Below the pieces are notes generated by a model, which searched no databases, was not told the DNA's origin, and saw only the letters and a program-made list of their open reading frames with translations. Below are positions 21,900 to 38,205 of a DNA stretch of 46,132 bases, in pieces (within the stretch, counting starts at the first letter, position 1; each line of letters begins with the position of its first letter). The stretch spans positions 1-46,132 of the forward strand of contig CAZNBS010000005.1 in the NCBI GenBank assembly GCA_964570955.1. Direction: 5' to 3'. Origin of the DNA: an uncultured Burkholderiales bacterium (GTDB lineage: Bacteria; Pseudomonadota; Gammaproteobacteria; Burkholderiales; SHXO01). Both the position numbers and the translations under genes were made by a program.

Positions 21900-23123
21900 T
21901 CAGTCCGGGTAGCGCGGCAGCTCGTACATGCCGGGAGGCAGTCCCTGCCCAAGGTGGAATCCGCCGAGCATGCCGGCGAAGTCGTCCGCGTTCTGCGTGG
22001 TGTGATTGGCCGCGACGAGCATGTCGCGCAGAACGCGTTGCATCGGATTGTTGCGATAGATGCCGCGCGCAGAGTTCGCTTTGTGCAGCAGCAGCACCGC
22101 CTGCTCGCACTCGCGGCCGACGCGTGCGATGTCAAGGATGTGCTCGATGCGCAATGCCTCCGGCACCTTCTCGCGGCGCTCGACGATGGGCCGGGTCTCC
22201 GCCATGATCTGCAGCAACCGGGCGCGTGACGACCTGACCAGCGCGATCGCGTTGCCCAGGCGGTCCTTGACATACGGGCTGAGCGCGACCGACCCGGGAA
22301 CCATGATTCCCTGCCGCTTCCGGGTATGCTCGATGAAGTGGTCGATCATCGCCTGCGCGAAGCCGACGATTGCCGACGACACCGATGCGAAGAACACCTG
22401 GTTGAACGGATACCAGTACTCGACCGCCATGTCCGGCCGAGGCTCGTACTCGACGATGCTGTGGGAGCGATAGTCCGGGACAAAGGTGTCGGGCTTGAGC
22501 TTCACGCTCTTGCTGCCCGTGCCGCACAGTCCCATCGTGAACCAGTCGTCGATCTGCTCGTAGTCGTTGCGCGAAACGAGGAATGAACGATGGTCGACGA
22601 AGCGGGTTTTCTCGTCGAAGACGCGCGCGCCGATGTACGCCCCGCCTCTTGCGTGGTCGGTGCCGCTGGAGGTGCCCCATGTGCCATTGAGGACCCAGCC
22701 GCCGTCGACCTTCCTGCAGGTGCCGAATGGCGCATACGACGACGCAACCAGTGTCTCGCTGTCGCGCGACCAGATGTCGGCGCAGGCGCGCTCCGGCATT
22801 TGCCCGAACTCCCACTGGTGTACGCCGAGGATCATCAGGTTCCAGCCGCTCGAACAGCATCCGCGGCCGACCTCCATCAGTACGCGCATGAAGGTGACCG
22901 GATCCATCTGGTAGCCGCCCCATTTGCGCGGCTGCATGATCCGGAAGAATCCGGCTTGCCTGAAGGCGTCGATGACCTCGTCGTCCACGCGCCGGGCCTG
23001 CTCGATCGCATCGGCGCGTTCGCGAAGCATCGGCACCAGAGCGCGCGCGCGCGCGACGAGCTCGTCGGCGGAGGGAATCTCCGCGTCTGCGGCAGCGGCC
23101 GCCCGGGTATCAATACTCTCCAT
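21900..23123 (-). CDS. acyl-CoA-dehydrogenase-fold flavin-dependent monooxygenase, oxygenase component (HsaA/TesA1/C2-HpaH group)
   Basis: 407 aa. LVPMLRERADAIEQARRVDDEVIDAFRQAGFFRIMQPRKWGGYQ opening, middle beta-domain (GGWVLNGTWGTSSG), C-terminal helical domain. GGAGGAGG RBS. Paired with a flavin reductase directly upstream. Confidence 0.85.
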   Translation of the reverse strand: MESIDTRAAAAADAEIPSADELVARARALVPMLRERADAIEQARRVDDEVIDAFRQAGFFRIMQPRKWGGYQMDPVTFMRVLMEVGRGCCSSGWNLMILGVHQWEFGQMPERACADIWSRDSETLVASSYAPFGTCRKVDGGWVLNGTWGTSSGTDHARGGAYIGARVFDEKTRFVDHRSFLVSRNDYEQIDDWFTMGLCGTGSKSVKLKPDTFVPDYRSHSIVEYEPRPDMAVEYWYPFNQVFFASVSSAIVGFAQAMIDHFIEHTRKRQGIMVPGSVALSPYVKDRLGNAIALVRSSRARLLQIMAETRPIVERREKVPEALRIEHILDIARVGRECEQAVLLLHKANSARGIYRNNPMQRVLRDMLVAANHTTQNADDFAGMLGGFHLGQGLPPGMYELPRYPD

Positions 23124-23216
23124 CTGATCCTCCTCCCACTGTCTGCAACTTCATGTTCGAAACGGGACAACCTGTCGCGCAGGTCGCGCTCGCGTACGAG
23201 GCGCCAATCTGGTACC

Positions 23217-23798
23217 TCACCAGATCCACTCGATCGGTTGCTCGGTGCTGCACCTCAACGGGGCAAGCTGACGGAAGCAGCCGTCGAGATAGATGAGCCC
23301 TTCGCGGGCGCCACCACCGGAGTCATCGTCGGAACGATGAACTGCGATGACGTCGCCGAGGAACATCGAATGCGTGCTGGCAGGAATCGTCTCCGTTACG
23401 TCACACACCAGTGTCACGCACGCGCCCTCGAGAGCAGGCGCGCCCGCGAGCGTTGACCAGCGACCCTCTGCGAAGCGCGTTTCGCCCATCACGCCCGGCT
23501 CCATGCCGGCAAAACGTCTCGCGAGTCCGATCGCTTCGCCGGGCAACACATTGACGCTTAGCCGACGGCTGGCAACGATCGCGTCGTGCGTGCCGGTCTT
23601 CCGGTTCAGGCAGACGAGCAAGCGTGGTGGATCGGCCGTGATCGAGCAGACGGCGGTCGCCGTCAGGCCAGAACGCCTGCCGGGCGTCCCGGTGGCCACG
23701 ATGCAGACCGCGCCTGCAAGCGACCTCATCGCAGCGCGAAAGGTGCTCACATCGACCGGCGCTGCCTTCGCTGCGGCGATTGCCGTCATCGTTTCCAT
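23217..23798 (-). CDS. NAD(P)H-flavin reductase component (HsaB/HpaC-like, flavin_reduct domain)
   Basis: FRAAMRSLAGAVCIVAT...GLTATAVCSITADPPRLLVCLN...HSMFLGDV, the canonical flavin reductase motifs. Start is ATG 23796-23798 downstream of the sigma54 promoter. The longer track ORF would start upstream of that promoter. Confidence 0.85.
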   Translation of the reverse strand: METMTAIAAAKAAPVDVSTFRAAMRSLAGAVCIVATGTPGRRSGLTATAVCSITADPPRLLVCLNRKTGTHDAIVASRRLSVNVLPGEAIGLARRFAGMEPGVMGETRFAEGRWSTLAGAPALEGACVTLVCDVTETIPASTHSMFLGDVIAVHRSDDDSGGGAREGLIYLDGCFRQLAPLRCSTEQPIEWIW

Positions 23799-23829
23799 GC
23801 GTACTTTGCTCTCCACCCAAATGGCTGAC

Positions 23830-23845
23830 GCAAAACTCATGCCAG
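23830..23845 (-). promoter_or_regulatory. sigma54 (-24/-12) promoter of the monooxygenase/meta-cleavage operon
   Basis: The minus strand reads TGGCATGAGTTTTGCG, i.e. TGGCAT-N5-TTGC with exact GG-N10-GC spacing. It sits ~30 nt upstream of the flavin reductase ATG, opposite a divergent sigma54 activator gene. Confidence 0.7.
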
Positions 23846-24049
23846 AGAAGTCTCGCCACTCCGCAGCCTGCCGTAGGCACATCACATGGTGCGACGCAAC
23901 CTAGAGCTAGAGTGAAGGGAAATCGAGCGGGATTGCTGCGATTGCATATGGCATGTGGTGGGTGATGGAGAACAGGCAAGACCGTTCTGCAGCCCTTGCG
24001 GTTGAAGAAAAATATTCTTACCGTTCAGAAAAATCCTTATGGTGAGGCG

Positions 24050-25894
24050 ATGAGCAATACCGCTATCGAGATCACTCAGTCCGCCGGAGCCAGGCGGCCA
24101 ACTCATGCCGAGCGGGGGGCGTCACTTGCGTTCAGCGATCTGGACCCCCGGGCCCTGACCGAACGGTTCCACTTCGACCTCAAGGCAGGGTGCATCTGGC
24201 TGGATACCCAGCGAGTGCTGATCCTGCAGGCCGAGTGGTTCGTCGAGCTTCGGCGCGAGCTGGTTGTGACGCTGGGGGTCCGGAAGGCGCGTGGATTGAT
24301 CACCCGGCTGGGTTACGCCGCGGGCTGCCGTGATGGGCAACTCGCGATCAAACTGCATGGGAGCCGTCCGCTTCGTGAGATCGTCGACTCCGGGACCCTG
24401 CTGCATGCGTTGCAGGGAACGGTCGCCGTGGTGCCGCTCGTCTACGAACTCGACCTGGACGCGCACCACTGTCACATGGAGTTCGCCTGGAAGAACTCGA
24501 TCGAGGATCACGCCCAGCTGAGGACCGCGAAACAGACAGGCGAACCGACCTGCTGGATGGAGATCGGCTATGCGTCAGGTTTCCTGACCACGTGCCTCGG
24601 ATCGTCCGTCGTCGTGCGTGAGACCGAATGCGCGGCGCTGGGCCACTCAGGTTGTCGATGCGTTGCCAGATTCGAGGACGAATGGGACGATCCGTCCGGG
24701 GACGTCGAGTATCTTCAGGCGTGGTCGGCGGCGGCGCCACCGGACGTCGTCGTTGCAGGGCAGCCCGAGACCAACGTCTGCGATGAGGGATCCGGCTGCG
24801 CTGAAGCAGCCGGGAACGGGCCGACATCCGTGGAGCCGAGCGTGCTGGGTCGCTCGGCTGCGTTCAACGGCGTTGCGCAGAAGATCGAGCGGGTGGCGGG
24901 AACGGAGGCCACCGTCCTGTTACTCGGCGAGAGCGGGGTTGGCAAGAGTCTGTTCGCGCGTGAGATCCATCGGCGTGGCAAGCGGGCCGACGGTCCCTTC
25001 ATCGAACTGAATTGCGCATCGCTCCCCGAGACGCTGCTCGAGTCCGAGTTGTTCGGTGTTGAGCGCGGCGCCTACACCGGAGCGAATGCGAGCCGCGCTG
25101 GGCGCTTCGAACGCGCGGCTGGCGGAACGCTGTTTCTCGACGAGATCGGCACGCTCGGATTCACCGCGCAGGGGAAGCTGCTGCGGGTGTTGCAATCGGG
25201 CGAATTCGAACGCCTGGGTGGCGGCAAGACACTGCGCGGCAACGTGCGACTGGTGGCCGCGACCAACGAAGACCTGCGCAGATCGGTCAACGAAGGGCGC
25301 TTCCGTCTGGACCTCTTCTATCGTCTGAATCTCTTTCCGATCGAAGTGCCTCCGCTGCGCGATCGACGCGACGACCTGCCCTTGCTCATCGATCACTTCC
25401 TCGAGCGCTACCGGGAGCGATATGGCAGGCGCCATCGGATGTCCATCAGCCCGCGTGCTTATCGCACGCTGCTCTCGCATTCGTGGCCCGGCAACGTGCG
25501 GGAACTCGAAAATGTGCTCGAGCGCGCGGTGATCCTGGTAAACGATGGCGAAACCCTCGATCTGCATCACCTGTTCACAGACCCGACCGAGTTTCCCGCC
25601 GAGGAGGGACTGCTGATCGACGACACAGGGCGCCTTGTGGGGACGCGCCAGAGCTCTCGCGCTGATGCGGATAACGCGGAGGACACGGTTGCCGGTGCCG
25701 CATCCGTTCAGGACTGGGCGCGACGTGCGCTGGACGACTGCGACGCCCTGGGTCTGTCGGGGTTGGAGCGCAAGCTCGTGATGGCCGCGTTGCGCGAGGC
25801 TGGAGGAGACGTCCGGATGGCCGCACGCAAACTCGGCCTGACCCGCGCCCAGATCGACTACCGATTGAAGAAGTGGGGCGAGACGCCCGCCTGA
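24050..25894 (+). CDS. sigma54-dependent transcriptional activator, XylR/DmpR/HbpR subclass (XylR_N + V4R sensor, AAA+, HTH_8)
   Basis: Aromatic-effector-type A domain ([15 protein letters not shown]..., V4R with [11 protein letters not shown]). Walker [22 protein letters not shown] sigma54-contact loop, FLDEIG, C-terminal Fis-type [23 protein letters not shown]. Confidence 0.9.
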
Positions 25895-26088
25895 TGCCGC
25901 ATCGACGTCCGTGAGCCGGCTCCTGACCGGTTCATGAGCCAGGTCGATTCCGGATAGATCCCCAGGTTGGTTTTCTGGATCCGACGGGAGCGGGGGGCGC
26001 CCGCGGAAGTTGTCCGCGAACACCTCGCGGCTAGGGTTTTCACCAATACGCAGCCTCCTGGTTGACTGATAAGGTTCCTTATATAACA

Positions 26089-26109
26089 CTATGCTGATAA
26101 TCAGCATAG
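26089..26109. promoter_or_regulatory. candidate MarR operator: perfect 21-bp palindrome
   Basis: CTATGCTGAT-A-ATCAGCATAG (10-1-10, no mismatch), 25 nt upstream of the MarR GTG start. It lies in an AT-rich patch with TTGACT at 26062-26067 and a GATAAT-like hexamer at its centre. Confidence 0.5.
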
Positions 26110-26133
26110 GATGTAAGGGACTCGATAGCCGCC

Positions 26134-26613
26134 GTGTTCAACCCGCTGTCCAAGCCCGGATTGTTGGTACGGAGACTGCATCAGATATCGGTGCGGCTGT
26201 TCGAGTCGTTCACCGTTGACCTCGCGATGTCTCCGGTCCAGTACGGCGTGCTGCAGGCTGTCGTAGACAACCCGGGCATCGACCAGGCCTCGCTGACGCA
26301 GATCGCCGATGTCGATCGCACCTCGGGGGTTCGTCTGGTCGATCGTCTGGAAGATCTCGGCCTGGTCAGGCGCGAAGTGTGCTCCGAGGATCGGAGGGTT
26401 CGCCGTCTGTATGCAACGCCGTTGGCCGAGCCGCTGATCCGGAAGGCCGACGCGGGTGCCGAGGCTTCGCAGCGCGCACTCCTTTCTCCTCTGAATACGG
26501 CTGAGCGCGAGGAGTTCATGCGCATGCTGCGGGTACTGGTTTCGGTTCACGCCGCGGAGGGCTATGCCCTGCACGAAGGCGCGAACCAGGCAGTCAACGA
26601 GCCACGCCCATGA
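26134..26613 (+). CDS. MarR family transcriptional regulator
   Basis: Winged-helix core SPVQYGVLQAVVDNPGIDQASLTQIADVDRTSGVRLVDRLEDLGLVRREVCSEDRRVRRLYATP. GTG start. The stop overlaps the next ATG (ATGA). Confidence 0.85.
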   Translation: MFNPLSKPGLLVRRLHQISVRLFESFTVDLAMSPVQYGVLQAVVDNPGIDQASLTQIADVDRTSGVRLVDRLEDLGLVRREVCSEDRRVRRLYATPLAEPLIRKADAGAEASQRALLSPLNTAEREEFMRMLRVLVSVHAAEGYALHEGANQAVNEPRP

Positions 26614-27602
26614 ATGCGCTTCGCCTTACGGTTGCCTGCTGGGACTACGACCGTGTTCGCCCCCTGATGGATGGGCGCGTGAGAGTGGACGGTGCACGCC
26701 TTAACGTCCTGCCACTGACTCCCGAGGAGACCTTCTTTCGCGCGTTCCGCAACGCCGAATTCGAGGTGAGCGAGCTTTCGCTCTCCTCAACGCTGATGAT
26801 GATCTCGCGCGGTGAATGCGCCTACACACCGATCCCGGTCTTCCCCTCGCGCTCCTTCCGTCATTCCTGCATCTACGTGCGTCAGGGCAGTGGTATCGAG
26901 CGGCCCGATCAGCTCAGAGGTTGTCGTGTGGCGATTCCCGAGTACCAGGTGACAGCGGCCATGGTGGCGCGAGGCCTGCTGGCCGATGAGTATGCCGTTC
27001 AGCCGAGTGATCTGAAATGGGTGCAGGCAGGGCTGGAGCAGGTGGGTCGGGAGGACAAGATCCGCTTTGAGCCGCCCGCAGGCGTTTGCATCGAAAAGGT
27101 ACGCGACCGGACCATTGTCGAGTTGTTCGAGCAGGGCGAGGTCGACGCGATGATCAGTCCCCGCGCACCGCGCAGCTTCGATCCTGCCGGCGGCGGCGCG
27201 ATCCGGCGGCTTTTCCCCGAGCCAGGGTTGGTCGAAGCCGCCTACTACCGAAAGACGGGGATCTTTCCGATCATGCATGTGCTGGGCATCCGCAACGACA
27301 TCCTGACTGCGAATCCATGGCTGCCGGGAAGTCTGGTCAAGGCCTTTACGCTGGCAAAGAACATGGCGCTGGCCGAACTTGCAGATGCCACTGCGCTCAA
27401 GGTGGCCTTGCCCTTCCTGCCCGCGCACGTGACCGAGGCCCATCGACTGTTCGGGCCCGACTTCTGGGCCTATGGCCTGGAGGCCAACCGCAAGTCCCTG
27501 GAAGCCGCCGTGCGCTGGTCACATGAGCAGGGGTTGTCAGTGAGGCGCCTGGGCATCGAAGAACTGTTTGCCCCGCAGTCACTGGCGAGCTGCAAGGTCT
27601 AA
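26610..27602 (+). CDS. 4,5-dihydroxyphthalate decarboxylase-like protein (NMT1/periplasmic-binding-fold decarboxylase family)
   Basis: The N-terminus LTVACWDYDRVRPLMDGRVRVDGARLNVLPLTPEETFFRAFRNAEFEVSELSLSS follows the pattern I recall for Pht5/PhtD-type decarboxylases (CxDYDRTRALxDGRVxIEG...EEIFxRAFRxxEFDVSELSxSS). Substrate not assignable. Confidence 0.6.
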   Translation: MNALRLTVACWDYDRVRPLMDGRVRVDGARLNVLPLTPEETFFRAFRNAEFEVSELSLSSTLMMISRGECAYTPIPVFPSRSFRHSCIYVRQGSGIERPDQLRGCRVAIPEYQVTAAMVARGLLADEYAVQPSDLKWVQAGLEQVGREDKIRFEPPAGVCIEKVRDRTIVELFEQGEVDAMISPRAPRSFDPAGGGAIRRLFPEPGLVEAAYYRKTGIFPIMHVLGIRNDILTANPWLPGSLVKAFTLAKNMALAELADATALKVALPFLPAHVTEAHRLFGPDFWAYGLEANRKSLEAAVRWSHEQGLSVRRLGIEELFAPQSLASCKV

Positions 27603-27608
27603 CAGGCG

Positions 27609-28829
27609 ATGGCCGATCAGCGCACCGTGATCGTTGGTGCAGGGCAGGCGGGAGGGACAGTGGCCGCCACCTTGAGGCACCTTGGCTACACGGGTTCGAT
27701 CACCGTGGTCGGCGACGAGCGCTGGCTGCCTTACGAGCGACCGCCACTCTCGAAGGCGCTTCTTCGAGGTTCGCTCGAGATCGACAGGATCTTTCTGCGG
27801 CCTGCAGCCTTCTATGCCGAACAGGGGATCAGGCTTCTCACGGGGCGGCACGTCTGCGCCATCGACCGTACGCGGTGCCTGTTGGAACTGGATGAAGGCG
27901 ACGCTGTGGGATACGACCAACTGGTGATCGCCACCGGTGCGCGCGCCCGTCGCCTGAGCGTTCCGGGTGCCGAATGCCTGGAAATCCACGTGCTGCGCAG
28001 CATCGATGATGCGCTTGTGCTGCGCGAGGCGCTGCTGTCATCGGCCCGGGTGCTGATCGTCGGCGGTGGCTTCATTGGAATGGAGATCGCGGCCGTTGTG
28101 CGCTCGCTTGGCCTGTCGGTCACGGTGATCGAAGCGGCGCCGACTCTGATGGCGCGCACCTTGCCCCCGGAAGTTGCCGCGTTTCTGGCCGGTGTGCACG
28201 TCGACCGAGGCGTGGCGATTCACACCGGTGTTGCGGTACGGGGTTTCTCACCGCGTCCGGGTGGCGGTGTCGTCGCGCAGACGAGCATGGGTCCCGTCGA
28301 GGCCGATGTGGTGGTCGCCGGTATCGGCGCGATCCCGAACACCGAATTTGCCGAAGCCGCGGGTCTGGCCGTCGAGGATGGTCTGCTGGTCGACGAGTTC
28401 GGGCGCACCGACGATCGACGCATATGGGCAGCCGGCGACGTGACGCGCCACTTCAATCCGTTGCTCGGCCGCCGTGTGCGTCTGGAGTCGTGGAAAAACG
28501 CGCAGAACCAGGCCATTGCGGTGGCGAAGGCCATCGCAGGGCAACCGGCGCCTTATGCCGAACTCCCATGGCTCTGGAGTGACCAGTACGACCTCAACCT
28601 GCAACTGTCCGGCGTGCCCCGGGGCGACGAGCACTTCGTCTGGCGTGGTACACCGGATGACGGGCGTTTCACGGTAATCGGTCTGAGCGGCGAGACGCCG
28701 TCTCTTGCGATTACCGTGAACCAGGGTCGCGAAATGCGATTCGCCCAGCAGTTGATCGCACGTGGTACCCCTGTCGATCCGTTACAGCTCGCGGATGTCC
28801 GCATCCCGCTGCAACGCATGGCCGCCTGA
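27609..28829 (+). CDS. FAD/NAD(P)-dependent ferredoxin reductase (BphA4/CamA-type)
   Basis: Two dinucleotide folds (VIVGAGQAGG and VLIVGGGFIGMEIAA), GDV motif (WAAGDVT), C-terminal reductase_C domain. 406 aa. Confidence 0.85.
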   Translation: MADQRTVIVGAGQAGGTVAATLRHLGYTGSITVVGDERWLPYERPPLSKALLRGSLEIDRIFLRPAAFYAEQGIRLLTGRHVCAIDRTRCLLELDEGDAVGYDQLVIATGARARRLSVPGAECLEIHVLRSIDDALVLREALLSSARVLIVGGGFIGMEIAAVVRSLGLSVTVIEAAPTLMARTLPPEVAAFLAGVHVDRGVAIHTGVAVRGFSPRPGGGVVAQTSMGPVEADVVVAGIGAIPNTEFAEAAGLAVEDGLLVDEFGRTDDRRIWAAGDVTRHFNPLLGRRVRLESWKNAQNQAIAVAKAIAGQPAPYAELPWLWSDQYDLNLQLSGVPRGDEHFVWRGTPDDGRFTVIGLSGETPSLAITVNQGREMRFAQQLIARGTPVDPLQLADVRIPLQRMAA

Positions 28830-28842
28830 CTGGGCCCCAATC

Positions 28843-30303
28843 ATGGGACCGATCGAACATCGACTGCCCGCCTGCCGCGATCTCTTCTATGGCGGGAAGT
28901 GGCACGTGCCGCTGGGTGGTTATACCCGAACCGTCGATCCGGCCACGCAAACCGATCTCGGCCCCGTGGCCGAAGCCAATGCGGCAGACGTGGATGCCGC
29001 TGTGCGTGCTGCCCACGAGGCATATCCGTCCTGGAGGAGTCTGGCTCCGGCGGAACGTGGAGCGCTACTGCGACGACTGGCGGAACGGGTGCGCGCCTGC
29101 GCCGACGAGTTCGCCTTCCTCGACGCGATCAACTGCGGCAACCCGATACGCGAGATGGGCCGTGATGCCGATGTCGCGGCGGCACAGCTGGATTACTACG
29201 GTGGTCTCGTGCGCGAGCTCAAGGGCGAAACGCTTCCACTGGGCGATCAGGCCATCAACTACTCCGTTCGCGAGCCATGGGGTGTCGTGGCACGCATCGT
29301 CGCCTATAACCATCCCCTGATGTTTCTGGCCGGCAAGCTGGCGCCGGCGCTGGCCGCCGGCAACACCGTCATCCTGAAGGCGCCCGCGCAGGCCCCGCTG
29401 TCGGCATACCGTCTGGCCGAACTGGTTGCCGAGGTCATGCCTGCAGGCGTCGTCGGCATTCTCAGCGGCGATCGCGAATGCGGGCAGGCACTGGTGTCGC
29501 ATCCACTGGTGCGGAGGGTCGCGTTAATCGGTTCGACTGCGACCGGCGCGGCGGTCCTGCGAGGCGCAGCCGACAAGATCATGCCGGCCCAACTGGAACT
29601 CGGCGGCAAGAATCCGCTGATCATCTGTCCGGATGCCGACCTGGAGCGCGCCCTCGACGGTGCCGTTTCCGGCATGAATTTCACCTGGGCAGGGCAGAGC
29701 TGCGGTTCGACGTCGCGCTGCTTCGTGCATCGGTCGATTTACGACGTCGCGATCGAAGGCATTCGCCAGCGGGTGATCGAGCGCCACCGTTGCGGGCTCC
29801 CCACCGATCCCGCCACCACGATGGGTTGCCTGATCTCCAGGGCGCAATTCGACAAGACGATGGGTTTCATCGAGTCGGCCCATGCCGAAGGGGCGCGGCT
29901 CGTGTGCGGCGGCGGTCGTCCTGCCGACCCGGCGCTGTCCCGAGGCTGGTTTGTCGAGGCCACGGTATTCGCCGACGTGACTCCGTCCATGCGCCTCTCT
30001 CGGGAAGAGGTCTTCGGCCCCGTGCTCGCGATGATCCCCTGGGATAGCGAAGACGAACTCGTCGAGCAGGTGAACGCACCTGAATATGGCTTGACGGCAT
30101 CCATCTGGACCCGCGACCTCGCGCGCGCCCACAGGCTGGCAGCTCGCGTCGAATCCGGCTACGTCTGGATCAATCACGCGAGCTCGCATCTGCCGGGTGC
30201 CGACTTCGGTGGCTACAAGCGTTCCGGACTCGGGCGCGAGGAAGGCCTGTCGGAGCTGCTCGCATGGACACAGTCGAAGAATGTCTTTGTCTCGCTCGGC
30301 TGA
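28843..30303 (+). CDS. NAD(P)-dependent aldehyde dehydrogenase (aromatic aldehyde type likely)
   Basis: LELGGKNPLII (Glu), WAGQSCGSTSRCF (Cys), EEVFGPV. ATG 28843 (MGPIEHRLP...) gives 486 aa. Confidence 0.9.
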   Translation: MGPIEHRLPACRDLFYGGKWHVPLGGYTRTVDPATQTDLGPVAEANAADVDAAVRAAHEAYPSWRSLAPAERGALLRRLAERVRACADEFAFLDAINCGNPIREMGRDADVAAAQLDYYGGLVRELKGETLPLGDQAINYSVREPWGVVARIVAYNHPLMFLAGKLAPALAAGNTVILKAPAQAPLSAYRLAELVAEVMPAGVVGILSGDRECGQALVSHPLVRRVALIGSTATGAAVLRGAADKIMPAQLELGGKNPLIICPDADLERALDGAVSGMNFTWAGQSCGSTSRCFVHRSIYDVAIEGIRQRVIERHRCGLPTDPATTMGCLISRAQFDKTMGFIESAHAEGARLVCGGGRPADPALSRGWFVEATVFADVTPSMRLSREEVFGPVLAMIPWDSEDELVEQVNAPEYGLTASIWTRDLARAHRLAARVESGYVWINHASSHLPGADFGGYKRSGLGREEGLSELLAWTQSKNVFVSLG

Positions 30304-30327
30304 GCCGGGCGCTCGAGGAGTCAATCG

Positions 30328-31443
30328 GTGAAAGCAACGATCCCAAAGCCGCCTTTCGAGACGACCGCGAATGCGCTGGAGGCCTTCACCAGCGAACTGA
30401 ACACGCGGTACCACATGATGGGGCAGTGGCAGGACGAAGGTTTGCTCAAGAGCATGATGGGTGGCGCAAAACCCGTCGGTGAACCCACAGTCTGGCCCTG
30501 GGCGGTCACCGAGTCGAAGCTGCTCGAGGCGTGCGACGTGCTCCCGGAAAGCATGGGGGCGCGACGCAGCCTCCTGATGCTCAACCCGGGCATCAAGGGC
30601 AAGAACGGCACCACTAACAACCTGTTGATGGGCGTACAGCTGGTCAAGCCAGGCGAGGTTGCCTGGGCCCACCGCCATTCGATCTCCGCACTGCGCTTCG
30701 CGATCGAGGGCTCTCGGGATCTGTACAGCGTCGTCGACGGCGAGCGGCTTGCGCTCGAGACCAACGACCTGGTCCTGACGCCGAGCTGGACCTGGCACGA
30801 CCACCACAACGAGAGCGATCGCCACGGGCTGTGGATCGACGTCCTTAACGTGCCACTCCTGGTAAGCCTCGGCCAGGTCGGCTTCGAACCTTACGGTCAC
30901 GCGGAGCAAACGCTGCAGAGGAACAGCGATTACATCAGCTCGCGCGCCGGAATCGTCCGCCCGACCTGGGAGCAGCGGCCGGTGCGCAACTACCCGCTTC
31001 GGTATGCGTGGTCGGCGGTCAGCAAGGAGCTGGAACGTCTGCACGATGCAGCGGGATGCCCCTTCGACGACGTCAACCTGGAGTACGTGAACCCCATGAC
31101 AGGCGGTCCAGCGTTGCCGACGATGCGCTGCTGTGTCCAGTTGCTGCGCCCCGGATTCGAAGGACGTTCGCAGTGCCGCACCTCAAGCACCGCGTATTTC
31201 GTCATCGAGGGCGAGGGCACCACCGTGGTCGACGGCAAGGAGCTGCGTTGGGGGCCGCGAGATGTCATCGCCGTGCCGAACGCCTGCGTCCGCCAGCACT
31301 TCAATCGATCGACACGCGACCGGGCCGTGCTGTTCTCGGTCAGCGACTCGCCGCTGCTCGAGGCCATCGGTCTTTATCGCGAAGACCCGGCCCTGCCGTT
31401 GGCCGCTCTACCCGCTGTGCCCGCGCGCCCCGTGCGTGCGTGA
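30328..31443 (+). CDS. bicupin ring-cleavage dioxygenase, gentisate 1,2-dioxygenase / 1-hydroxy-2-naphthoate dioxygenase family
   Basis: N-terminal cupin with PGEVAWAHRHSISALRFAIEG...LVLTPSWTWHDHHNES (His ligands). A second cupin lies around TSSTAYFVIEGEGTTVVDG. ~370 aa as in GDO-like enzymes. GTG start after GAGGAG. Confidence 0.75.
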   Translation: MKATIPKPPFETTANALEAFTSELNTRYHMMGQWQDEGLLKSMMGGAKPVGEPTVWPWAVTESKLLEACDVLPESMGARRSLLMLNPGIKGKNGTTNNLLMGVQLVKPGEVAWAHRHSISALRFAIEGSRDLYSVVDGERLALETNDLVLTPSWTWHDHHNESDRHGLWIDVLNVPLLVSLGQVGFEPYGHAEQTLQRNSDYISSRAGIVRPTWEQRPVRNYPLRYAWSAVSKELERLHDAAGCPFDDVNLEYVNPMTGGPALPTMRCCVQLLRPGFEGRSQCRTSSTAYFVIEGEGTTVVDGKELRWGPRDVIAVPNACVRQHFNRSTRDRAVLFSVSDSPLLEAIGLYREDPALPLAALPAVPARPVRA

Positions 31444-31466
31444 ATTTTCCCAGGAGGCCGTCCGAT

Positions 31467-31940
31467 ATGGATTCCCAACTGCACCTGCGCGTGGCAGAAC
31501 TCTACACGCGCCATTCCGAGATCATCAGCGACAATCATCTCGAGCAATGGCCAGACCTCTACACCGAGGACTGCCTCTACAAGCTCGTTTCACGCGCCAA
31601 CTTCGACCGCCAGCTCCCCCTGGGAACGATCCTGTGCGAAAGCCGTGGCGCCCTGATCGATCGCGTGACCGCAATTCGCAACACCATGGTCTACGCGCCG
31701 CGAAGCATCATCCACACCGTGAGCAATGCGCGGCTGACCGAAGTGGCGACCGACGGCGCGCTGTCGGCGCGCAGCATGTTCTGCGTCTGGCAGACCCTCC
31801 CGGACGGCCAGAGTCACCTTCAACTGGTTGGGCGAAGCTTCGATCGCATTGCCGTCAACGGCGAAGAACTGCGGTTCCGGGAGCGTATCGCCGTCTTCGA
31901 CTCGGAACTCGTTCCTGGATCCATTGTCTACCCCATCTGA
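31467..31940 (+). CDS. aromatic ring-hydroxylating oxygenase beta (small) subunit
   Basis: 157 aa SnoaL-like fold. LEQWPDLYTEDCLYKLVSR...ALIDRVTAIRNT...H is typical of Ring_hydroxyl_B. AGGAGG RBS. Confidence 0.85.
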   Translation: MDSQLHLRVAELYTRHSEIISDNHLEQWPDLYTEDCLYKLVSRANFDRQLPLGTILCESRGALIDRVTAIRNTMVYAPRSIIHTVSNARLTEVATDGALSARSMFCVWQTLPDGQSHLQLVGRSFDRIAVNGEELRFRERIAVFDSELVPGSIVYPI

Positions 31941-31963
31941 AAGCAAGCCCAGGAGACCGCAGT

Positions 31964-33229
31964 ATGGACACCGCCTCTAAAGCACCATTCGCACCACGGG
32001 CGCCGCGCGCCTGGCCTACGGAAGACTGCTCCCGCATTCCGAACTGGATCTACTCTGATCCGGATCACTATCAGGCCGAACTGGACCGCATCTTCTACGG
32101 GCCGTTCTGGACCTTCGTCGGACTCGAGTGCGAGGTGCCCAATCACGGAGACTGGAAGCAGGCTGTCGTGGGCGAACGCGCAGTGATCCTGACGCGCGCC
32201 AGGGATGCTCAGGTGCACGTGGTCCTCAACAGTTGCGCACATCGGGGGGCACAGATCTGCAACAAGGCGTTCGGCCACGACAAGGAACTGATGTGCCCCT
32301 ACCATCAGTGGACCTTCGACCTGAACGGCGACCTGTTGGGCGTGCCGTTCCGTCGGGGTGTCAAAGGCAAGGGCGGCTATCCGTCGGACTTCGACCCCAG
32401 AAAGCATCCGCTGCGCAAACTCAAGGTGGAATGCGTCAACGGCGCGGTCTTCGCGAGTTTCGACGAGCGCACCCTGCCGATGAAGGACTACCTCGGCGAC
32501 GAACTCTACAAGCGCCTGACGCGCGTTTTCGACGGCCGCGAACTCAAACTTCTGGGCCACCAGCGACAGAAGATCAAGGGCAACTGGAAGCTCTATCCGG
32601 AGAACATGAAGGATTCGTACCACGCCACGTTGCTGCACGTCTTCCTGATCAGTTTCGGCCTGTATCGAATCGATCAGAAGGGCGAATTGCTACAGGATTC
32701 GCGCACGCTCGCGCACAACGTCGTGAGCTCGCGCGCTAACAGCAGCGAGACGAAGGAGGCCAGGGAGATGAGGTCGCTCAAGGCCGATTTCCAGCTCAAC
32801 GACATGCGGATCGTGACGCCGGTCAAGGAATACGATGACGACGTCACGATCCAGAACGTGACGATGTTTCCCGGTCTCACGGTGCAGCAACAACAGAACC
32901 TGCTGCAGTGCCGCAACGTGATCCCGCGGGGACCGAACGAATTCGAGTTGTCATGGACGTACTTCGGCTACGCCGACGATACCGAGGAGATGACGCAGCG
33001 CCGCCTGCGTCTGGCGAACCTCACCGGCGCGGCTGGTCTGATCTCGGTGGACGACACTGAGGTATTCGAGTTCTCCGGTGCCGGCATGCGTCCCAATGCG
33101 GATCGTGACTGCGTCGTCGAGCTTGCCGGCCGTTCACCCGAACCTCCCAGGGAGTTCGGTGACATGGTTTCGGAAGGCCCGATCAGGGGTTTCTACGATT
33201 TCTACAGACGCATCATGTTCAACGATTGA
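31964..33229 (+). CDS. Rieske non-haem iron oxygenase alpha subunit (NagG/salicylate-5-hydroxylase/OhbB-like group)
   Basis: Rieske CAHRGAQIC-x13-CPYHQW. Mononuclear iron motif NMKDSYHATLLH. GVPFRRG and NWKLYPEN blocks are shared with NagG-type large subunits. 421 aa. Confidence 0.9.
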   Translation: MDTASKAPFAPRAPRAWPTEDCSRIPNWIYSDPDHYQAELDRIFYGPFWTFVGLECEVPNHGDWKQAVVGERAVILTRARDAQVHVVLNSCAHRGAQICNKAFGHDKELMCPYHQWTFDLNGDLLGVPFRRGVKGKGGYPSDFDPRKHPLRKLKVECVNGAVFASFDERTLPMKDYLGDELYKRLTRVFDGRELKLLGHQRQKIKGNWKLYPENMKDSYHATLLHVFLISFGLYRIDQKGELLQDSRTLAHNVVSSRANSSETKEAREMRSLKADFQLNDMRIVTPVKEYDDDVTIQNVTMFPGLTVQQQQNLLQCRNVIPRGPNEFELSWTYFGYADDTEEMTQRRLRLANLTGAAGLISVDDTEVFEFSGAGMRPNADRDCVVELAGRSPEPPREFGDMVSEGPIRGFYDFYRRIMFND

Positions 33230-33238
33230 GGTTAAGCC

Positions 33239-33559
33239 ATGTCCGGGATTCGCTTCGAATCGGTCGCGAACGTCGACGACATCGAGCCCGGCCAGGGCCT
33301 GCGATGCATCGTAGGCGGTCGGGCCATCGCGCTGTTCAATGTCGATGGTCGATTCCATGCAATCGACGACCGCTGTTCTCACGACGACGCGTCGCTCGCG
33401 GAAGGCTGGCTGGAGGGCTGCGAAATCGAGTGCCCGTTGCATCAGGGGCGCTTCGACGTCACCAGCGGCAAGGCAACGGCTGCGCCCTGTGTCGTGGATG
33501 TCTCGACCTATCCGATACGCATCGAAGATGGGCGCATCTCGGTCGCCGTCCCGATCTGA
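33239..33559 (+). CDS. Rieske-type [2Fe-2S] ferredoxin component
   Basis: 106 aa with CSHDDASL...CPLHQGRF (C-x-H ... C-x-x-H). Confidence 0.9.
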   Translation: MSGIRFESVANVDDIEPGQGLRCIVGGRAIALFNVDGRFHAIDDRCSHDDASLAEGWLEGCEIECPLHQGRFDVTSGKATAAPCVVDVSTYPIRIEDGRISVAVPI

Positions 33560-33570
33560 CCCGTTCTGAT

Positions 33571-33602
33571 GGCGCCGCCTCCCGAAGGCTGGAGGCGGCG
33601 CC
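33571..33602 (+). terminator. 12-bp perfect GC hairpin (attenuator/terminator-like or RNA stabiliser)
   Basis: GGCGCCGCCTCC-cgaaggct-GGAGGCGGCGCC between the ferredoxin stop and the hemerythrin-like gene. No U-tract follows. Confidence 0.35.
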
Positions 33603-33622
33603 TCGCGCGACCGAAGGAAACC

Positions 33623-34207
33623 ATGAAGCGTCGCAGCCTCAAGATCATCCACGACGAGCACGCGTCGCTGGCCGCCGTGCTGCACTCGGCGCGCATGATG
33701 GTGGATCGCGGACCGACCGGCGATCACAGGAGCTTCTTCGAGACGTTGCGAGCCATGCTGTTCTACATCGACGAGTTTCCCGAGCGTCTCCACCATCCGA
33801 AGGAAACCGGGCTTCTGTTTCCGCGCGTGGTGCAGTCGGTGCCCGCGTTGAGCGCAACGGTGGCGCAGCTGAACCGCGACCACGACTTTACCGAGACGGC
33901 GGTGCGCGACCTGGGGCATTTGCTGCTGGCCTGGGAGTTGCTCGGCGATGTGCGCAAGACCGCCTTCGTCGACGGCTTCACCCGCTATCTCGAACGGTAT
34001 CTGACGCACATGCAACTCGAGGAGCGCGAGATCCTTCCCGCTGCGGAGAAGCATCTCGGTGAGGCTGACTGGCAGATACTCGATGCCGCATTCGAGCAGA
34101 ACCGTGATCCGCTGACCGGCAACTACAAGCCCGATCCGCAGTTCGCGGAGCTCTTCTCGCGCATTCTGCGCGGGGCGCCAGCACCGATCGGGCTCGGGAA
34201 CCGCTGA
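33623..34207 (+). CDS. hemerythrin HHE cation-binding domain protein
   Basis: Repeated His/Glu ligand motifs: IIHDEHASL, ERLHHPKE, LTHMQLEEREI, four-helix periodicity. ATG 33623 is preceded by AAGGAA. Confidence 0.7.
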   Translation: MKRRSLKIIHDEHASLAAVLHSARMMVDRGPTGDHRSFFETLRAMLFYIDEFPERLHHPKETGLLFPRVVQSVPALSATVAQLNRDHDFTETAVRDLGHLLLAWELLGDVRKTAFVDGFTRYLERYLTHMQLEEREILPAAEKHLGEADWQILDAAFEQNRDPLTGNYKPDPQFAELFSRILRGAPAPIGLGNR

Positions 34208-34327
34208 CCCTGCAGTGACGGGTGCGAAGTGCGCCGGCAACGAGGGATCCGGCACTCGCCGATGCTCAGGCGCCCCGGGAACGCCAAGTCGCCCCGGGCT
34301 TTCACGACGCGCAGCAACGCGACACAT

Positions 34328-36221
34328 TAGTCCGAAGTTCCGACCCAGCTGAGCCGCTTGCAGGCACCTGATCCGAGTCAGATCAATGAGATAGACGTAA
34401 TTGTCGGCTGAATTTTGAATATCACGTGGACATGCATATCCACCTCCTCCCCAACCGAGGCTCGCCGCCCACCGTTTTACTGCGCGAGTCGTATCGCGAG
34501 GGATCGAAGGTGCGCAAGCGAACGCTGGCCAATCTCTCGAGCTTGGCGGCTGCGCAGATCGAAGCCATGCGCGCCGTGCTGGCTGGCAAGGCCGTGCAGC
34601 CGATCGCGCAAACGTTGGAGATCACCGGCTCGCGCCCGCACGGCCACGTGCAGGCGGTGCACGCCGCGATGCGTCGGCTGGAGGTGGCCTCGTTGCTGGA
34701 CACCAAGCCCTCGCCCGAGCGCGACCGGGTGCTCGCCATGATCGCCGCGCGCATCGTCGCGCCTTCACCGAAACTGGCCATCACACGCTGGTGGCACACG
34801 ACGACGCTGGCCGAGGAGTTCGGCGTCGTCGACGCCGACGAGAGCGACCTGTACGCGGCGATGGACTGGCTGCTTGAGCGCCAGGAGCGAATTGAGAACA
34901 AGCTCGCCGCGCGCCACCTCGCCGAAGGTGGCCTCGTGCTCTACGACCTGTCGTCGAGCTACTTCGAGGGCACGACCTGCCCGCCGGCGCGCCTGGGCCA
35001 CAGCCGCGACGGGCGCCGCGGGATGTTGCAGGTCAACTACGGCTTGCTCACCGATGCGCGCGGCTGCCCGGTGGCCGTATCGGTGCACGAGGGCAACGTC
35101 GCCGACAGTGCGACGTTCCTGCCGGCGGTGCAGCGGCTGCGCGAGCGCTTCGGCGTGGGTGAGCTCATGATGGTGGGCGATCGCGGCATGATCGGACACA
35201 AGGCGATCGAGGAGTTGCGCAGCCACCAGGGCATCGGCTGGATCACGGCGCTCAAGAGCGGCTCGATCCGCGCGCTCATCGAGCAGGGGCAGCTGCAGCT
35301 CGGGCTGTTCGACGAGCGCAACCTCATCGAGCTCGCCTCGCCCGAGTACCCGGGCGAGCGGTTCGTGGCATGCCGCAATCCGCAACTGGCGAAGCTTCGT
35401 GCGTTCAAGCGCGAGGATCTGCTGCGCGCTACCGAGAAGAATCTGCAGGCGATCGAAGATCGCGTCCAGGCGGGCCGGCTCGAGGGGGCCGATGCGATCG
35501 GCCTGCGCGTGGGTAAGGTCGTGAACCAGTACAAGGTCGCCAAGCACTTCGAACTGGAGATCGAAGACCGAAGCTTCAGCTTCGCGCGCAAGGAGCAGGT
35601 GATCGCTGCCGAAGCCGCGCTCGATGGAATCTACATCATCTGCACCTCGGTGGGCATCGAGCGTATGGATGCGCCCGAGTGCGTACGCAGCTGCAAGGCG
35701 CTGGCCAACGTGGAGCGGGCGTTCCGGTCGCTCAAGACGGTGGACCTGAAGGTGCGTCCCATCCACCACCGCACGGAAAATCGCGTGCGCGCGCACATCT
35801 TCCTGTGCATGCTCGCCTACTACGTCGAGTGGCACATGCGCGAGGCGTGGCGCGAGTTGATGTTCGCCGACACCGAGCAGCACGCAAAAGCGAGCCGCGA
35901 TCCGGTGGCGCCGGCCAGGTGCTCAGCCAAGGCGCTGGCGCAGGCGGCGAGCCACGCGCTCGACGACGGCACGCCCGTGCACAGCTTCGCCACGCTGATG
36001 GCCGAGATGGCCACCGTCGTGCGCAACACCTGCCGCACGCCCCGCGCCGAGGCCGAGGCGCCGACCTTCGAGATCGTCACGACCGCCAACGCCAAGCAGA
36101 AGCGCGCCCTCGAGTTGATTCAGAACATCGAGCCGTAGACAGAACGCGGAACCTCGATCTCGCGCCATGTCATTGGCGCACAAGGCAAAACCCGCTACCG
36201 GGGCGCTGGAACTTCAGCTTA
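34328..36221 (+). mobile_element. IS1634-family (IS4-like) insertion sequence; boundaries approximate
   Basis: Single transposase ORF flanked by imperfect inverted ends sharing a GAAGTTCC core. Left end is TAGTCCGAAGTTCCGACCC at 34328. The right end reverse-complements to TAAGCTGAAGTTCCAGCGCC and ends at 36221. No convincing target-site duplication was seen. Confidence 0.5.
34426..36138 (+). CDS. IS1634 family DDE transposase
   Basis: The N-terminus LLRESYREGSKVRKRTLANLSSL matches the IS1634 hallmark (ESYREGGKVRQRxLxNLG). DDE-type core (LVLYDLSSSYFEG, MVGDRGM, IICTS). C-terminal YxxRxxIExxFRxLK block (ERAFRSLKTVDLKVRPIHH). An alternative ATG lies at 34432. Confidence 0.85.
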   Translation: MDMHIHLLPNRGSPPTVLLRESYREGSKVRKRTLANLSSLAAAQIEAMRAVLAGKAVQPIAQTLEITGSRPHGHVQAVHAAMRRLEVASLLDTKPSPERDRVLAMIAARIVAPSPKLAITRWWHTTTLAEEFGVVDADESDLYAAMDWLLERQERIENKLAARHLAEGGLVLYDLSSSYFEGTTCPPARLGHSRDGRRGMLQVNYGLLTDARGCPVAVSVHEGNVADSATFLPAVQRLRERFGVGELMMVGDRGMIGHKAIEELRSHQGIGWITALKSGSIRALIEQGQLQLGLFDERNLIELASPEYPGERFVACRNPQLAKLRAFKREDLLRATEKNLQAIEDRVQAGRLEGADAIGLRVGKVVNQYKVAKHFELEIEDRSFSFARKEQVIAAEAALDGIYIICTSVGIERMDAPECVRSCKALANVERAFRSLKTVDLKVRPIHHRTENRVRAHIFLCMLAYYVEWHMREAWRELMFADTEQHAKASRDPVAPARCSAKALAQAASHALDDGTPVHSFATLMAEMATVVRNTCRTPRAEAEAPTFEIVTTANAKQKRALELIQNIEP

Positions 36222-36231
36222 CGAGTACAAC

Positions 36232-37206
36232 ATGGTGCATCTCAATCGCCGCAAGCTGATGGCCGCTTCATTGGCCAGTGTGTTGGCCCAGTCCACATGG
36301 GCCCAATCGCTGCCTTCGACTGCGCGCATCCTCGTCGGCTTCCCGCCCGGTTCGGGGCCAGACCTCGCAGCCCGCCAGCTTGGCCTCGCCCTCACGGGCA
36401 AGCTGGCCTCGGTCGCCGTGGTGGAGAACCGCACCGGCGCCTCGGGCAACATCGCGGTCAGTGCTGCGCTCAGTGCCGCGCCCGACGGCATGACCCTGCT
36501 GTCGAACCCCAGCGGCGTGATGACAGTCAATCCGCACATTTTCCGCAAGCTCGCCTTCTCGCCGTTCACGGACCTGACGCCTATCAGCACCACATGCCGC
36601 TATGAACTCGCTCTGGCGGTCGGGCCGGCTGTGCCGGAATCGGTGATGACACTGACCGATTTCAGCGACTGGACGCGCCAGCAGCGTCAGCCCGTGGCCT
36701 ATGGGTCGTCGGGCGGCAGTCTGTATCTGCTGGGCTACGCGTTCGGCCGCAGTCAGAAGCTCGACCTGATCCACGTGCCTTACCGGGGTGCCGGACCCAT
36801 GCTCGTCGATATCCAGGCTGGGCAAGTGCCTGCCGGCACCGGCTCGCTGCCCGCGCTGATGGCGCAAGCCGGCAGTGGCAAGCTGCGCGTGCTCGCCAGC
36901 ACCGGATCGGCGCGGTCACGCTTCTTTCCCTCTGTCCCAACATTCGAGGAACAAGGCGTGCATGGGCTGGCCATGCGCGAGTGGCACGGCATCTACGTCG
37001 CGGGAAAGCCGACCCTGGAGGTCATCGCGCGGCTGGTGACGCTGGTGCAGGCAGCGGTGAACTTACCGTCCTTCGTCGAGGCCATGGGTAAGATGGGTTT
37101 CGAAGCCGCAGCCTCGTCGCCAGAGGAGTTGGACCGGCTGGCACGCAGCGATTCCGAGCGCTGGGGCGAGATTGTCAAGGCATCGGGCTTCGTTCAGGAA
37201 AACTGA
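36232..37206 (+). CDS. Bug family (TctC-like) substrate-binding protein
   Basis: Signal peptide with [39 protein letters not shown]. Its ATG lies only ~11 nt from the inferred IS end, and no good SD is present. Confidence 0.85.
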
Positions 37207-37309
37207 GCGGTGAAACCCTCGCACGGATTCTGGTCCGCCTAGCCGCGCTACGCCTCGTCTCCTTCCCGTCGGCACGCGTTCCGGCGCCGTCGTCCGTGCG
37301 TACAGAGAA

Positions 37310-37500
37310 AAGCGCAGGAACATCTGCCGCGAATAGCCGAGTACCATCACAAAGGCCATCAGCGAGCGGCGCGCCCGCCCGATCACGAGATGGCCGAAGT
37401 GCCCCCAGTCGACCTGCGCCTGTTCGGCTGGCAGCGTGCGCAGCCGCAGGTAGGCTTCGACGGGGCGCCCCAGCTCAGGCGCCCCGGGAACGCTTCTGCG
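37310..37500 (-). pseudogene. IS21-family IstA transposase remnant (~60 codons of the DDE core)
   Basis: Within track ORF 37063..37635, [45 protein letters not shown] matches the IstA block (FETxPGEQAQVDxG...FVAVLGYSR...). Similarity is lost on both sides, and there is no start, HTH or istB. Confidence 0.45.
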
Positions 37501-38080: not shown

Positions 38081-38173
38081 ACAGAAAGGATGCTAAGCGT
38101 TTTTCTGTCCGCTGTAAGGCGGTGTTGGGCCCAAGGAATCGGGTTTTCCCTAACTACAAAAGGAGTAAACAAA

Positions 38174-38205
38174 TAGGAACCTTTGTATTATATTCATGGT
38201 TCCTA
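38174..38205. promoter_or_regulatory. candidate MarR operator / promoter region of the ABC operon
   Basis: TAGGAACC-N16-GGTTCCTA inverted repeat with an AT-rich spacer (tttgtattatattcat, -10-like), in the AT-rich divergent intergenic region. A second repeat, ACAGAAA-N14-TTTCTGT, lies at 38081-38108 next to the MarR ATG. Confidence 0.35.

Follow-up and report, generated by a model that had tools for sequence, protein, structure and literature searches.

The turnover of methylnaphthalene and polycyclic aromatic hydrocarbons (PAHs) yields naphthoic acids as signature metabolites and as dead-end products. A pathway for one of these acids is said to run in Burkholderia sp. JT 1500 from 2-naphthoate via 1-hydroxy-2-naphthoate, 2′-carboxybenzalpyruvate, phthalaldehydate and phthalate to protocatechuate, and the original account reportedly left open which enzyme catalyzes the first step. 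In the searchable literature, no genes are assigned to aerobic naphthoic acid breakdown, and no paper was found that assigns genes to 2-naphthoate catabolism; the reference for the JT 1500 pathway (Morawski et al, 1997) is cited in PMC8006333. The phn and phd genes encode the lower route of phenanthrene degradation, in which 1-hydroxy-2-naphthoate is converted to o-phthalate, as in clusters of the AFK2 type (PMC3318190). For o-phthalate itself, a review from 2026 gives only three aerobic routes, starting with a 4,5-, 3,4- or 2,3-dioxygenase and each including a dihydrodiol dehydrogenase (PMC13040137; PMC6362003). Here, a stretch of 46,132 nucleotides from an uncultured Burkholderiales bacterium (contig CAZNBS010000005.1; "the window", to which all positions refer) was analyzed, which carries a catabolic island of ∼17 genes in two adjacent units. 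On balance, this island probably, if by no means certainly, breaks down 2-naphthoate or a 1-hydroxy-2-naphthoate-type acid via a phthalate-type acid and 3-hydroxybenzoate, every step of the route being deduced from homology and gene linkage.

In this route, an ATP-binding cassette (ABC) system would import the acid (step 1), and a three-component Rieske oxygenase would hydroxylate it beside the carboxyl group to a 1-hydroxy-2-naphthoate-type acid (step 2). A bicupin dioxygenase would open the ring between the hydroxyl- and the carboxyl-bearing carbons (step 3), and a PhdJ-like hydratase-aldolase encoded in unit 2 would release pyruvate and a 2-carboxybenzaldehyde-type aldehyde (step 4), which an aldehyde dehydrogenase (ALDH) would oxidize to a phthalate-type diacid (step 5). 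A PhtD-like enzyme would then decarboxylate a monohydroxylated phthalate to 3-hydroxybenzoate (step 6), where known clusters instead employ phthalate dioxygenase plus dihydrodiol dehydrogenase, and MobA would convert 3-hydroxybenzoate to protocatechuate (step 7). The hydroxyl group of the hydroxyphthalate could stem from a growth substrate already hydroxylated on its second ring, or the same Rieske oxygenase might also hydroxylate phthalate. The biochemical pathway of JT 1500, the genes of which are not known, reportedly comprises steps 2 to 5. An earlier note, made from the first nine genes, had offered two partial readings. The one modeled on phd/pht pathways came close to the evidence and is here refined and extended; the note's remark that the combination is not a described operon is borne out within the literature searched. 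The enzyme families are known ones, but an uncharacterized oxygenase clade is combined with a likely new exit from the phthalate stage.

The oxygenase system is encoded, like all of unit 1, on the plus strand. It comprises a ferredoxin-NAD(+) reductase (27609-28829, 406 residues; Pfam Pyr_redox_2 and Reductase_C; 415 bits against the NCBIfam model AndAa, which is under the model's cut-off), a beta subunit (31467-31940, 157 residues; Pfam Ring_hydroxyl_B, 1.2e-12), an alpha subunit (31964-33229, 421 residues) and a Rieske-type ferredoxin (33239-33559, 106 residues; Pfam Rieske, 8.5e-20; NCBIfam HcaC and AndAb types). Among solved structures, the alpha subunit matches NagG (7c8z, 1e-115) and TphA2 (2e-90); it is 45.8% identical to an annotated nagG product, and no NCBIfam model reaches its cut-off. 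The system had initially been called NagG-type, and a tree of alpha subunits had been proposed as a check. In that tree, the protein falls, with full support, into a clade separate from NagG and is not its ortholog; this phylogeny makes it a member of an uncharacterized clade of the aryl-carboxylate subfamily. The carboxylate-binding arginine common to NagG, TphA2, AndAc and AhdA1c (R309 in TphA2, R323 in NagG) is kept. In TphA2, the second, para carboxylate is held by N224, S243 and R390 (PMC9060491), which align with Tyr, Val and Met in the window's protein; the reading as a terephthalate dioxygenase was rejected because this distal-carboxylate motif is missing. Hydrophobic or neutral residues occupy the pocket positions that were mappable, none of them a further basic residue that might bind a second carboxylate, and these positions do not separate clusters with oph genes from those without.

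Gene neighborhoods were surveyed at 80 genome loci. At 25 of these, the alpha subunit is at least 60% identical to that of the window, and ∼50 belong to a sister clade at ∼50% identity. The former group is well supported in a tree of the genome loci and has beta before alpha, whereas the sister clade has alpha before beta. A PhdJ-like aldolase gene lies nearby at every one of the 25 clade loci but at none of the ∼50 sister loci; a bicupin gene likewise accompanies all 25, compared with few sister loci, and a PhnI-like ALDH gene accompanies 22 of them but is rare in the sister clade. There, the usual partners are a ferredoxin and a PhtD-like gene, joined in L056 by an ornithine cyclodeaminase-family gene and a bicupin. 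Moreover, ophA2, ophC and ophB directly follow the ALDH gene or lie beside the module at 12 of the 25 clade loci (Polaromonas, Hydrogenophaga, Rubrivivax, Ramlibacter, Tepidicella and others). The full oph set after the ALDH gene argues that the product of the module is phthalate, and that the oxygenase is therefore dispensable for phthalate and acts upstream. As the oxygenase is constantly found with a ring-fission set of the 1-hydroxy-2-naphthoate type and with uptake genes, its simplest role would be the conversion of 2-naphthoate to 1-hydroxy-2-naphthoate.

The same survey bears on an alternative in which 1-hydroxy-2-naphthoate is imported and converted to phthalate by bicupin, aldolase and ALDH, and the Rieske enzyme, as a NagG-like monooxygenase, acts only on phthalate, leading via 3- or 4-hydroxyphthalate to 3-hydroxybenzoate. 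This would constitute a fourth aerobic route for o-phthalate, one without a dihydrodiol dehydrogenase. It employs every enzyme and accounts for both the missing dehydrogenase and the 3-hydroxybenzoate hydroxylases; it also agrees with the direct linkage of the sister oxygenases (∼50% identity) to a PhtD-like gene (alpha, beta, ferredoxin, PhtD-like), and with the fact that the genomes of the window, of its nearest relative L019 and of the Pusillimonas metagenome-assembled genome (MAG) L026 have the built-in decarboxylase and no OphA2 ortholog. However, a phthalate hydroxylase would be redundant at the 12 loci where the oxygenase clade is paired with complete ophA2/ophB/ophC, and the hydrophobic or neutral pocket without a second basic residue also speaks against phthalate as the sole substrate. 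An oxygenase acting downstream only is considered unlikely.

The sister-clade arrangement itself recurs in soil Burkholderiales MAGs (L056:9995-16251 and ∼20 loci: L045, L050, L052-L058, L060, L072-L075, L098) in the order alpha, beta, ferredoxin, PhtD-like gene, ornithine cyclodeaminase-family gene and bicupin, with a divergent TctC gene. Through hydroxylation and decarboxylation, this uncharacterized cluster may turn a hydroxy-dicarboxylate into a gentisate-type acid.

To compare the lower-pathway enzymes with phn products, the plasmid cluster of the phenanthrene degrader Massilia sp. WG5 was used, which is of the AFK2 type, with genes in the phnH, phnG and phnI positions; its phnI owes the functional assignment to synteny with clusters of that type (PMC3318190). 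The ALDH of the island (28843-30303, 486 residues; Pfam Aldedh, 1.5e-146), predicted to be of the 2-carboxybenzaldehyde type, is 73% identical to the product of the WG5 gene in phnI position versus 38% for the phnF position. The aldolase (42890-43852, plus strand, 320 residues, DHDPS fold) shares 62% with the product of the phnH-position gene versus 37% with that of the NahE-type phnE-position gene, and matches the structure of PhdJ (6dan) at 7.5e-107 versus 7.6e-76 for NahE. Because the identities of 73 and 62% fall inside the spread of the island's own orthologs, aldolase and ALDH most likely handle substrates of the 2′-carboxybenzalpyruvate and the 2-carboxybenzaldehyde type, respectively.

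The bicupin (30328-31443, 371 residues) belongs to one of two lineages found in related islands, lineage A including PhnG and lineage B including the window's protein. As a member of lineage B, it has retained the iron ligands along with the Arg/Gln/Arg triad of salicylate 1,2-dioxygenase, the structure of which it matches at 5e-39. For its lineage B relatives at ∼50% identity, the name given by JGI is mostly 1-hydroxy-2-naphthoate dioxygenase, and for the closest ones gentisate dioxygenase (GDO). A 1-hydroxy-2-naphthoate-type acid is its predicted substrate. At A85, W104 and G106, specificity positions of salicylate 1,2-dioxygenase, the window's bicupin reads Ser, Leu and Gly; these positions were dropped as a guide, as neither lineage has a pattern that could be linked to a substrate. 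The substrate 1,4-dihydroxy-2-naphthoate was also discarded, as its cleavage product would need a hydrolase and not the invariably linked hydratase-aldolase.

In a monocyclic version of the route, a (hydroxy) benzene dicarboxylate would be hydroxylated and decarboxylated to a salicylate-type acid, which the bicupin would cleave as a salicylate 1,2-dioxygenase; the aldolase would yield pyruvate and 4-oxobut-2-enoate, and the ALDH maleate or fumarate. The chemistry is coherent and requires no isomerase or hydrolase, the nearest solved relatives of the bicupin use monocyclic acids, and binding proteins of the dicarboxylate-uptake type (TctC, DctP) occur in related clusters. Yet ALDH and aldolase share 73 and 62% with products of genes from a phenanthrene cluster (phnI and phnH positions), inside their common diversity, phthalate dioxygenase genes directly follow the ALDH gene at 12 loci, none of the loci showed a maleate isomerase or hydratase, and the MobA or 3HB6H-like enzyme would be left without a role. 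A monocyclic substrate is thus regarded as quite unlikely.

Less still speaks for the other reading of the earlier note, a nag-type route in which oxidation of an aldehyde would give a salicylate-type acid, hydroxylation at C5 would turn this acid into a gentisate-type diol, and gentisate dioxygenase would cleave the diol. In its favor, the solved structures that match best are NagG for the alpha subunit and GDOs for the bicupin. However, the alpha subunit is only 46% identical to nagG and stands in a separate clade; the bicupin scores 233 bits against the GDO model TIGR02272, far below its cut-off of 442; and neither maleylpyruvate isomerase nor fumarylpyruvate hydrolase is among the genes of 26134-45841. 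In addition, cleavage of a gentisate-type compound gives a 2,4-diketo acid, which a hydratase-aldolase could not use, although the aldolase is invariably linked. This reading, which gave way in all three comparisons (NagG orthology, GDO cut-off, maleylpyruvate and fumarylpyruvate enzymes), is extremely improbable.

With a naphthoate-type acid as the favored substrate, the exit from the phthalate stage would depend on the second gene of unit 1. It encodes a 330-residue homolog of the PhtD/OphC family (26610-27602), the sole solved relative of which, 9jp7 (E = 9e-92), is a 4,5-dihydroxyphthalate decarboxylase. Identity is 47% to OphC of classical oph clusters and 68-87% within its own clade, and the protein is predicted to decarboxylate a hydroxyphthalate. 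The Comamonas enzyme is said to produce 3-hydroxybenzoate when acting on 4-hydroxyphthalate. That this 4,5-dihydroxyphthalate decarboxylase acts on 4-hydroxyphthalate has been recorded (PMC13040137, with reference to Nakazawa and Hayashi 1978). Decarboxylation of 3- or 4-hydroxyphthalate to 3-hydroxybenzoate by a PhtD-type enzyme fits the observation that, in two orthologous lineages, the aldolase gene is followed by two different kinds of 3-hydroxybenzoate hydroxylase. In the window and L019, it is a 4-hydroxylase of the MobA type (in the window at 43868-45841, plus strand, starting 15 nt past the aldolase gene; 2dkh, MobA of Comamonas, E = 0, 1050 bits, full length). In L007-L009, it is a 3HB6H-like flavoprotein (4bjy, 1e-72), after which come a second bicupin and an FAA-family hydrolase; together these make a gentisate-pathway set.

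Among the related islands, only the PhtD-like gene, at the operon head, is present in the lineage of the window, in L016 and in the Pusillimonas MAG. Paraburkholderia islands carry UbiD/UbiX at the step after the ALDH, and Actinomadura (L014) has a distant OphC-like gene, an Amidohydro_2 gene and protocatechuate-branch genes; L100 also has an Amidohydro_2 gene. Neither the genome of the window, a MAG that is 86.7% complete in 515 contigs, nor that of L019 contains a match to OphA2, and in the Pusillimonas MAG (L026) nothing closer than a 36% relative is present; a search with Pfam LigXa_C lacked a positive control. For OphB, only Gfo/Idh/MocA-family proteins of 24-30% identity were found elsewhere in the window's genome, and no ortholog in that of L019. 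Polaromonas aquatica and Paraburkholderia tuberum, whose islands lack the PhtD-like gene, do encode OphA2 elsewhere in the genome (74-78% identity). As OphA2 follows this pattern of presence and absence in the genomes searched, it looks as if the built-in decarboxylase and the 3-hydroxybenzoate hydroxylase replace the oph genes. The earlier note had found its readings incomplete, and family calls across the genes of unit 1 indeed give no dihydrodiol dehydrogenase, maleylpyruvate isomerase or fumarylpyruvate hydrolase. This incompleteness is largely an effect of the coordinates chosen, as aldolase and MobA are encoded in unit 2, but the absence of a dihydrodiol dehydrogenase is real throughout the genome as assembled. 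The stronger proposition, namely that the alpha/beta clade is the 2-naphthoate 1-hydroxylase of the pathway described in 1997 and that, in addition, the island runs a new o-phthalate route (monohydroxylation by the Rieske enzyme and decarboxylation to 3-hydroxybenzoate, with neither dihydrodiol nor dehydrogenase), is rather unlikely.

As separate observations, equivalent clusters hold three unrelated decarboxylase families (PhtD-like, UbiD/UbiX and Amidohydro_2), and in Paraburkholderia tuberum and P. atlantica (L015:12536-14805; L023; L028) a UbiD/UbiX pair takes the place of the PhtD-like gene of the window's lineage.

Several findings weigh against the route via 2-naphthoate and 3-hydroxybenzoate. 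The alpha clade contains no ortholog with an assigned substrate, and clusters with and without oph genes are intermixed on the alpha tree, which gives no sign of a changed oxygenase specificity. L099, the closest alpha relative outside the lineage (83%), has no decarboxylase nearby. The bicupin is only 33% identical to PhnG, and its closest solved relatives are gentisate dioxygenases (1e-56 for 2d40; 3e-52). The ring hydroxyl that a PhtD-type decarboxylase should require would have to be added to phthalate, for which no enzyme is evident in the island; 3-hydroxybenzoate is linked to the island through neighboring genes in two sister lineages; and the incompleteness of the MAG leaves the absence of oph genes unproven.

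A search for the synteny of unit 1, also suggested in the earlier note, recovered this set of eight or nine genes, its order unchanged, from independent assemblies (L007-L009 and L019), with 75-98% protein identity in other Burkholderiaceae assemblies. Because the order recurs in independent assemblies, the block is more than a chance assortment. Both units recur in L007-L009 at 75-87% protein identity. Such conservation bears on the notion that the island is a mosaic of unrelated modules joined by mobile elements, for instance a 1-hydroxy-2-naphthoate module and a hydroxyphthalate/3-hydroxybenzoate module. Insertion sequence (IS) elements flank related modules, equivalent clusters differ in their decarboxylase family, and the 83% relative L099 has no decarboxylase at all, as would be expected of a mosaic. 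On the other hand, the supposed modules are interleaved in both units, the decarboxylase gene being translationally coupled to the marR gene that heads unit 1 and the aldolase sharing unit 2 with MobA, and the arrangement is kept across lineages at 75-87% protein identity. A mere mosaic therefore appears very unlikely.

None of nine genomes of the same genus contains the oxygenase, and the island is therefore accessory; when 400 genomes from its order were searched, one distant match was returned, representative genomes proving a poor source of relatives. Identical DNA is present in metagenomes from sludge, bioreactors, soil and aquatic habitats (13 studies), some runs of which may be the source of the assembly. 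Contigs from RNA libraries cover the stretch, some of them across several genes, at a flat depth that includes the insertion described below. Given this flat depth, they do not prove cotranscription, and DNA carry-over is possible. On the plasmid of Massilia sp. WG5 (NZ_CP012641.2, 1-27000; L010, L017), an IS6-flanked tandem duplication with aldolase, bicupin, beta, alpha and oph genes shares the replicon with a complete AFK2-type phn cluster. An 8-kb contig filed under Microcoleus sp. B3-D7 (L020) encodes module proteins that share 99-100% identity with their counterparts in Tepidicella and Hydrogenophaga, and is probably a contaminant or a very recent transfer.

Unit 1 consists of nine densely packed plus-strand genes (26134-34207). 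All nine, with the families listed in the earlier note, were recovered by Pfam, NCBIfam and PDB matches, two starts being corrected: those of the beta and alpha genes were reset to ATG codons consistent with the orthologs. At the new alpha start, an AGGAGA ribosome-binding site is present, and the resulting length agrees with orthologs of 421 residues. The tight spacing noted previously also stands, with an ATGA overlap between marR and the second gene and remaining gaps of 6, 13, 24, 23, 23, 9 and 9 nt. What does not stand is the view of the nine genes as a stand-alone operon, as they form the first half of the island. The two units are separated by an insertion of 3,188 bp (34285-37472) with a DDE transposase (34426-36138; Pfam DDE_Tnp_1) and a TctC-family binding protein (36232-37206; Pfam TctC). 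The insertion disrupts no gene and lies between the two copies of a 21-nt direct repeat (34264-34284 and 37473-37493). This 21-mer, GCTCAGGCGCCCCGGGAACGC, is present at both ends of the insertion in the window but only once in L019, a Burkholderiaceae MAG contig that is the nearest relative (94% nucleotide identity) and collinear with 25001-34284 and 37473-46132. Without the insertion, the hemerythrin gene of L019 directly adjoins the second unit. A repeat of 21 nt is unusually long for a target-site duplication, and the insertion also holds a remnant. No reliable joined form without the insertion was found, all listed joints having sides of at most 30 letters.

Unit 2 contains the five-gene ABC importer (38122-42837, plus strand; Pfam Peripla_BP_6, BPD_transp_2 and ABC_tran), which is 78-86% identical to the genes of L007. 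It encodes a binding protein (likely limits 38254-39438), two permeases (39470-40390 and 40383-41375) and two ATPases (41372-42127 and 42124-42837), and the aldolase and mobA-type genes follow. The open reading frames at 40415-42127 and 37296-37928 were discarded as artefacts of overlapping frames. Directly upstream of the island lies a separate catabolic unit (17240-25894), in which the gene for a XylR/DmpR-type sigma-54 activator diverges from an operon on the minus strand; this operon encodes a flavin reductase, an ACAD-fold oxygenase, enzymes of a meta pathway and an extradiol dioxygenase.

Each unit has its own MarR regulator, which would repress it until an aromatic acid binds. MarR1 (26134-26613, 159 residues; Pfam MarR_2, 1.8e-11) has orthologs of 77-98% identity that head the equivalent operon. 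The palindrome pointed out in the earlier note, 25 nt upstream of its start (26089-26109), is a perfect 10+1+10 repeat, single in the window and matched in 0 of 100 shuffles; it is kept in L019, and its core is retained in L007-L009. It is likely the operator of MarR1, as predicted from position and conservation. MarR2 (37475-38080, minus strand), divergent from unit 2, shares 72% identity with its positional counterpart in L007 and L008 and 94% with that in L019. The intergenic region between MarR2 and the ABC genes contains a 7+7 inverted repeat (38081-38108; ACAGAAA, 14 nt, TTTCTGT), a candidate MarR2 operator unlike the MarR1 palindrome. Scans for terminators and promoters gave counts no higher than the shuffled expectation and are therefore uninformative.

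The last gene of unit 1 encodes a hemerythrin-domain protein (33569-34207, 212 residues, or 194 from 33623; Pfam Hemerythrin, 1.6e-11), which would be accessory. Its counterpart in L019 occupies the equal position (92% identity), and that of L007, 39% identical, is placed after the ABC genes. Hemerythrin-domain genes also lie beside Rieske, phn and oph clusters in varied, unrelated arrangements (L017:10952-11398, L003:1093-1494, L007:16971-17543).

For the genetics of naphthoic acid breakdown, the island provides a lead in the form of a specific candidate oxygenase clade, present in Polaromonas, Hydrogenophaga, Rubrivivax, Ramlibacter, Massilia, Paraburkholderia and Actinomadura and recognizable by a clear genomic signature, in which the beta gene precedes alpha and genes for a PhdJ-like aldolase and a bicupin adjoin. 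A second lead is the variant that seemingly bypasses phthalate dioxygenase via 3-hydroxybenzoate. If true, it would add to the three aerobic o-phthalate pathways, and the bypass would be relevant to the bioremediation of plasticizers and PAHs.

Compared with described systems, the oxygenase resembles NagGH with NagAa/NagAb (Ralstonia sp. U2), TphA2A3, AndAcAd and AhdA1c in being a three-component enzyme of alpha and beta subunits with the carboxylate-binding arginine. It differs from the NagGH group in having beta before alpha, in forming a separate clade, and in its linkage to an aldolase rather than to maleylpyruvate enzymes. With phnGHI and phdIJK, the island shares three enzyme families, and the order aldolase, bicupin, ALDH is kept in related clusters; unlike them, it has a bicupin of the other lineage, an additional three-component Rieske oxygenase and an uptake system, lacks upper-pathway PAH genes, and does not hand its phthalate-type product to a phthalate dioxygenase. 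The oph/pht pathway (OphA1A2, OphB, OphC) has the decarboxylase family in common with the island, and many related clusters fuse the island to a full oph set, whereas here OphA2 and OphB were not found in the cluster, in the rest of the MAG or in the genome of L019. Attack on o-phthalate beside the carboxyl group by a three-component Rieske oxygenase of the alpha/beta type has a precedent in the opa pathway of Pseudomonas sp. PTH10 (PMC6362003), which, however, needs the dehydrogenase OpaB and meta-cleavage of 2,3-dihydroxybenzoate, neither of which is among the products of the island. The 2-naphthoate pathway of JT 1500 and the island are alike in their predicted intermediates, but the island seems to leave the phthalate stage via 3-hydroxybenzoate and not via dihydroxyphthalate.

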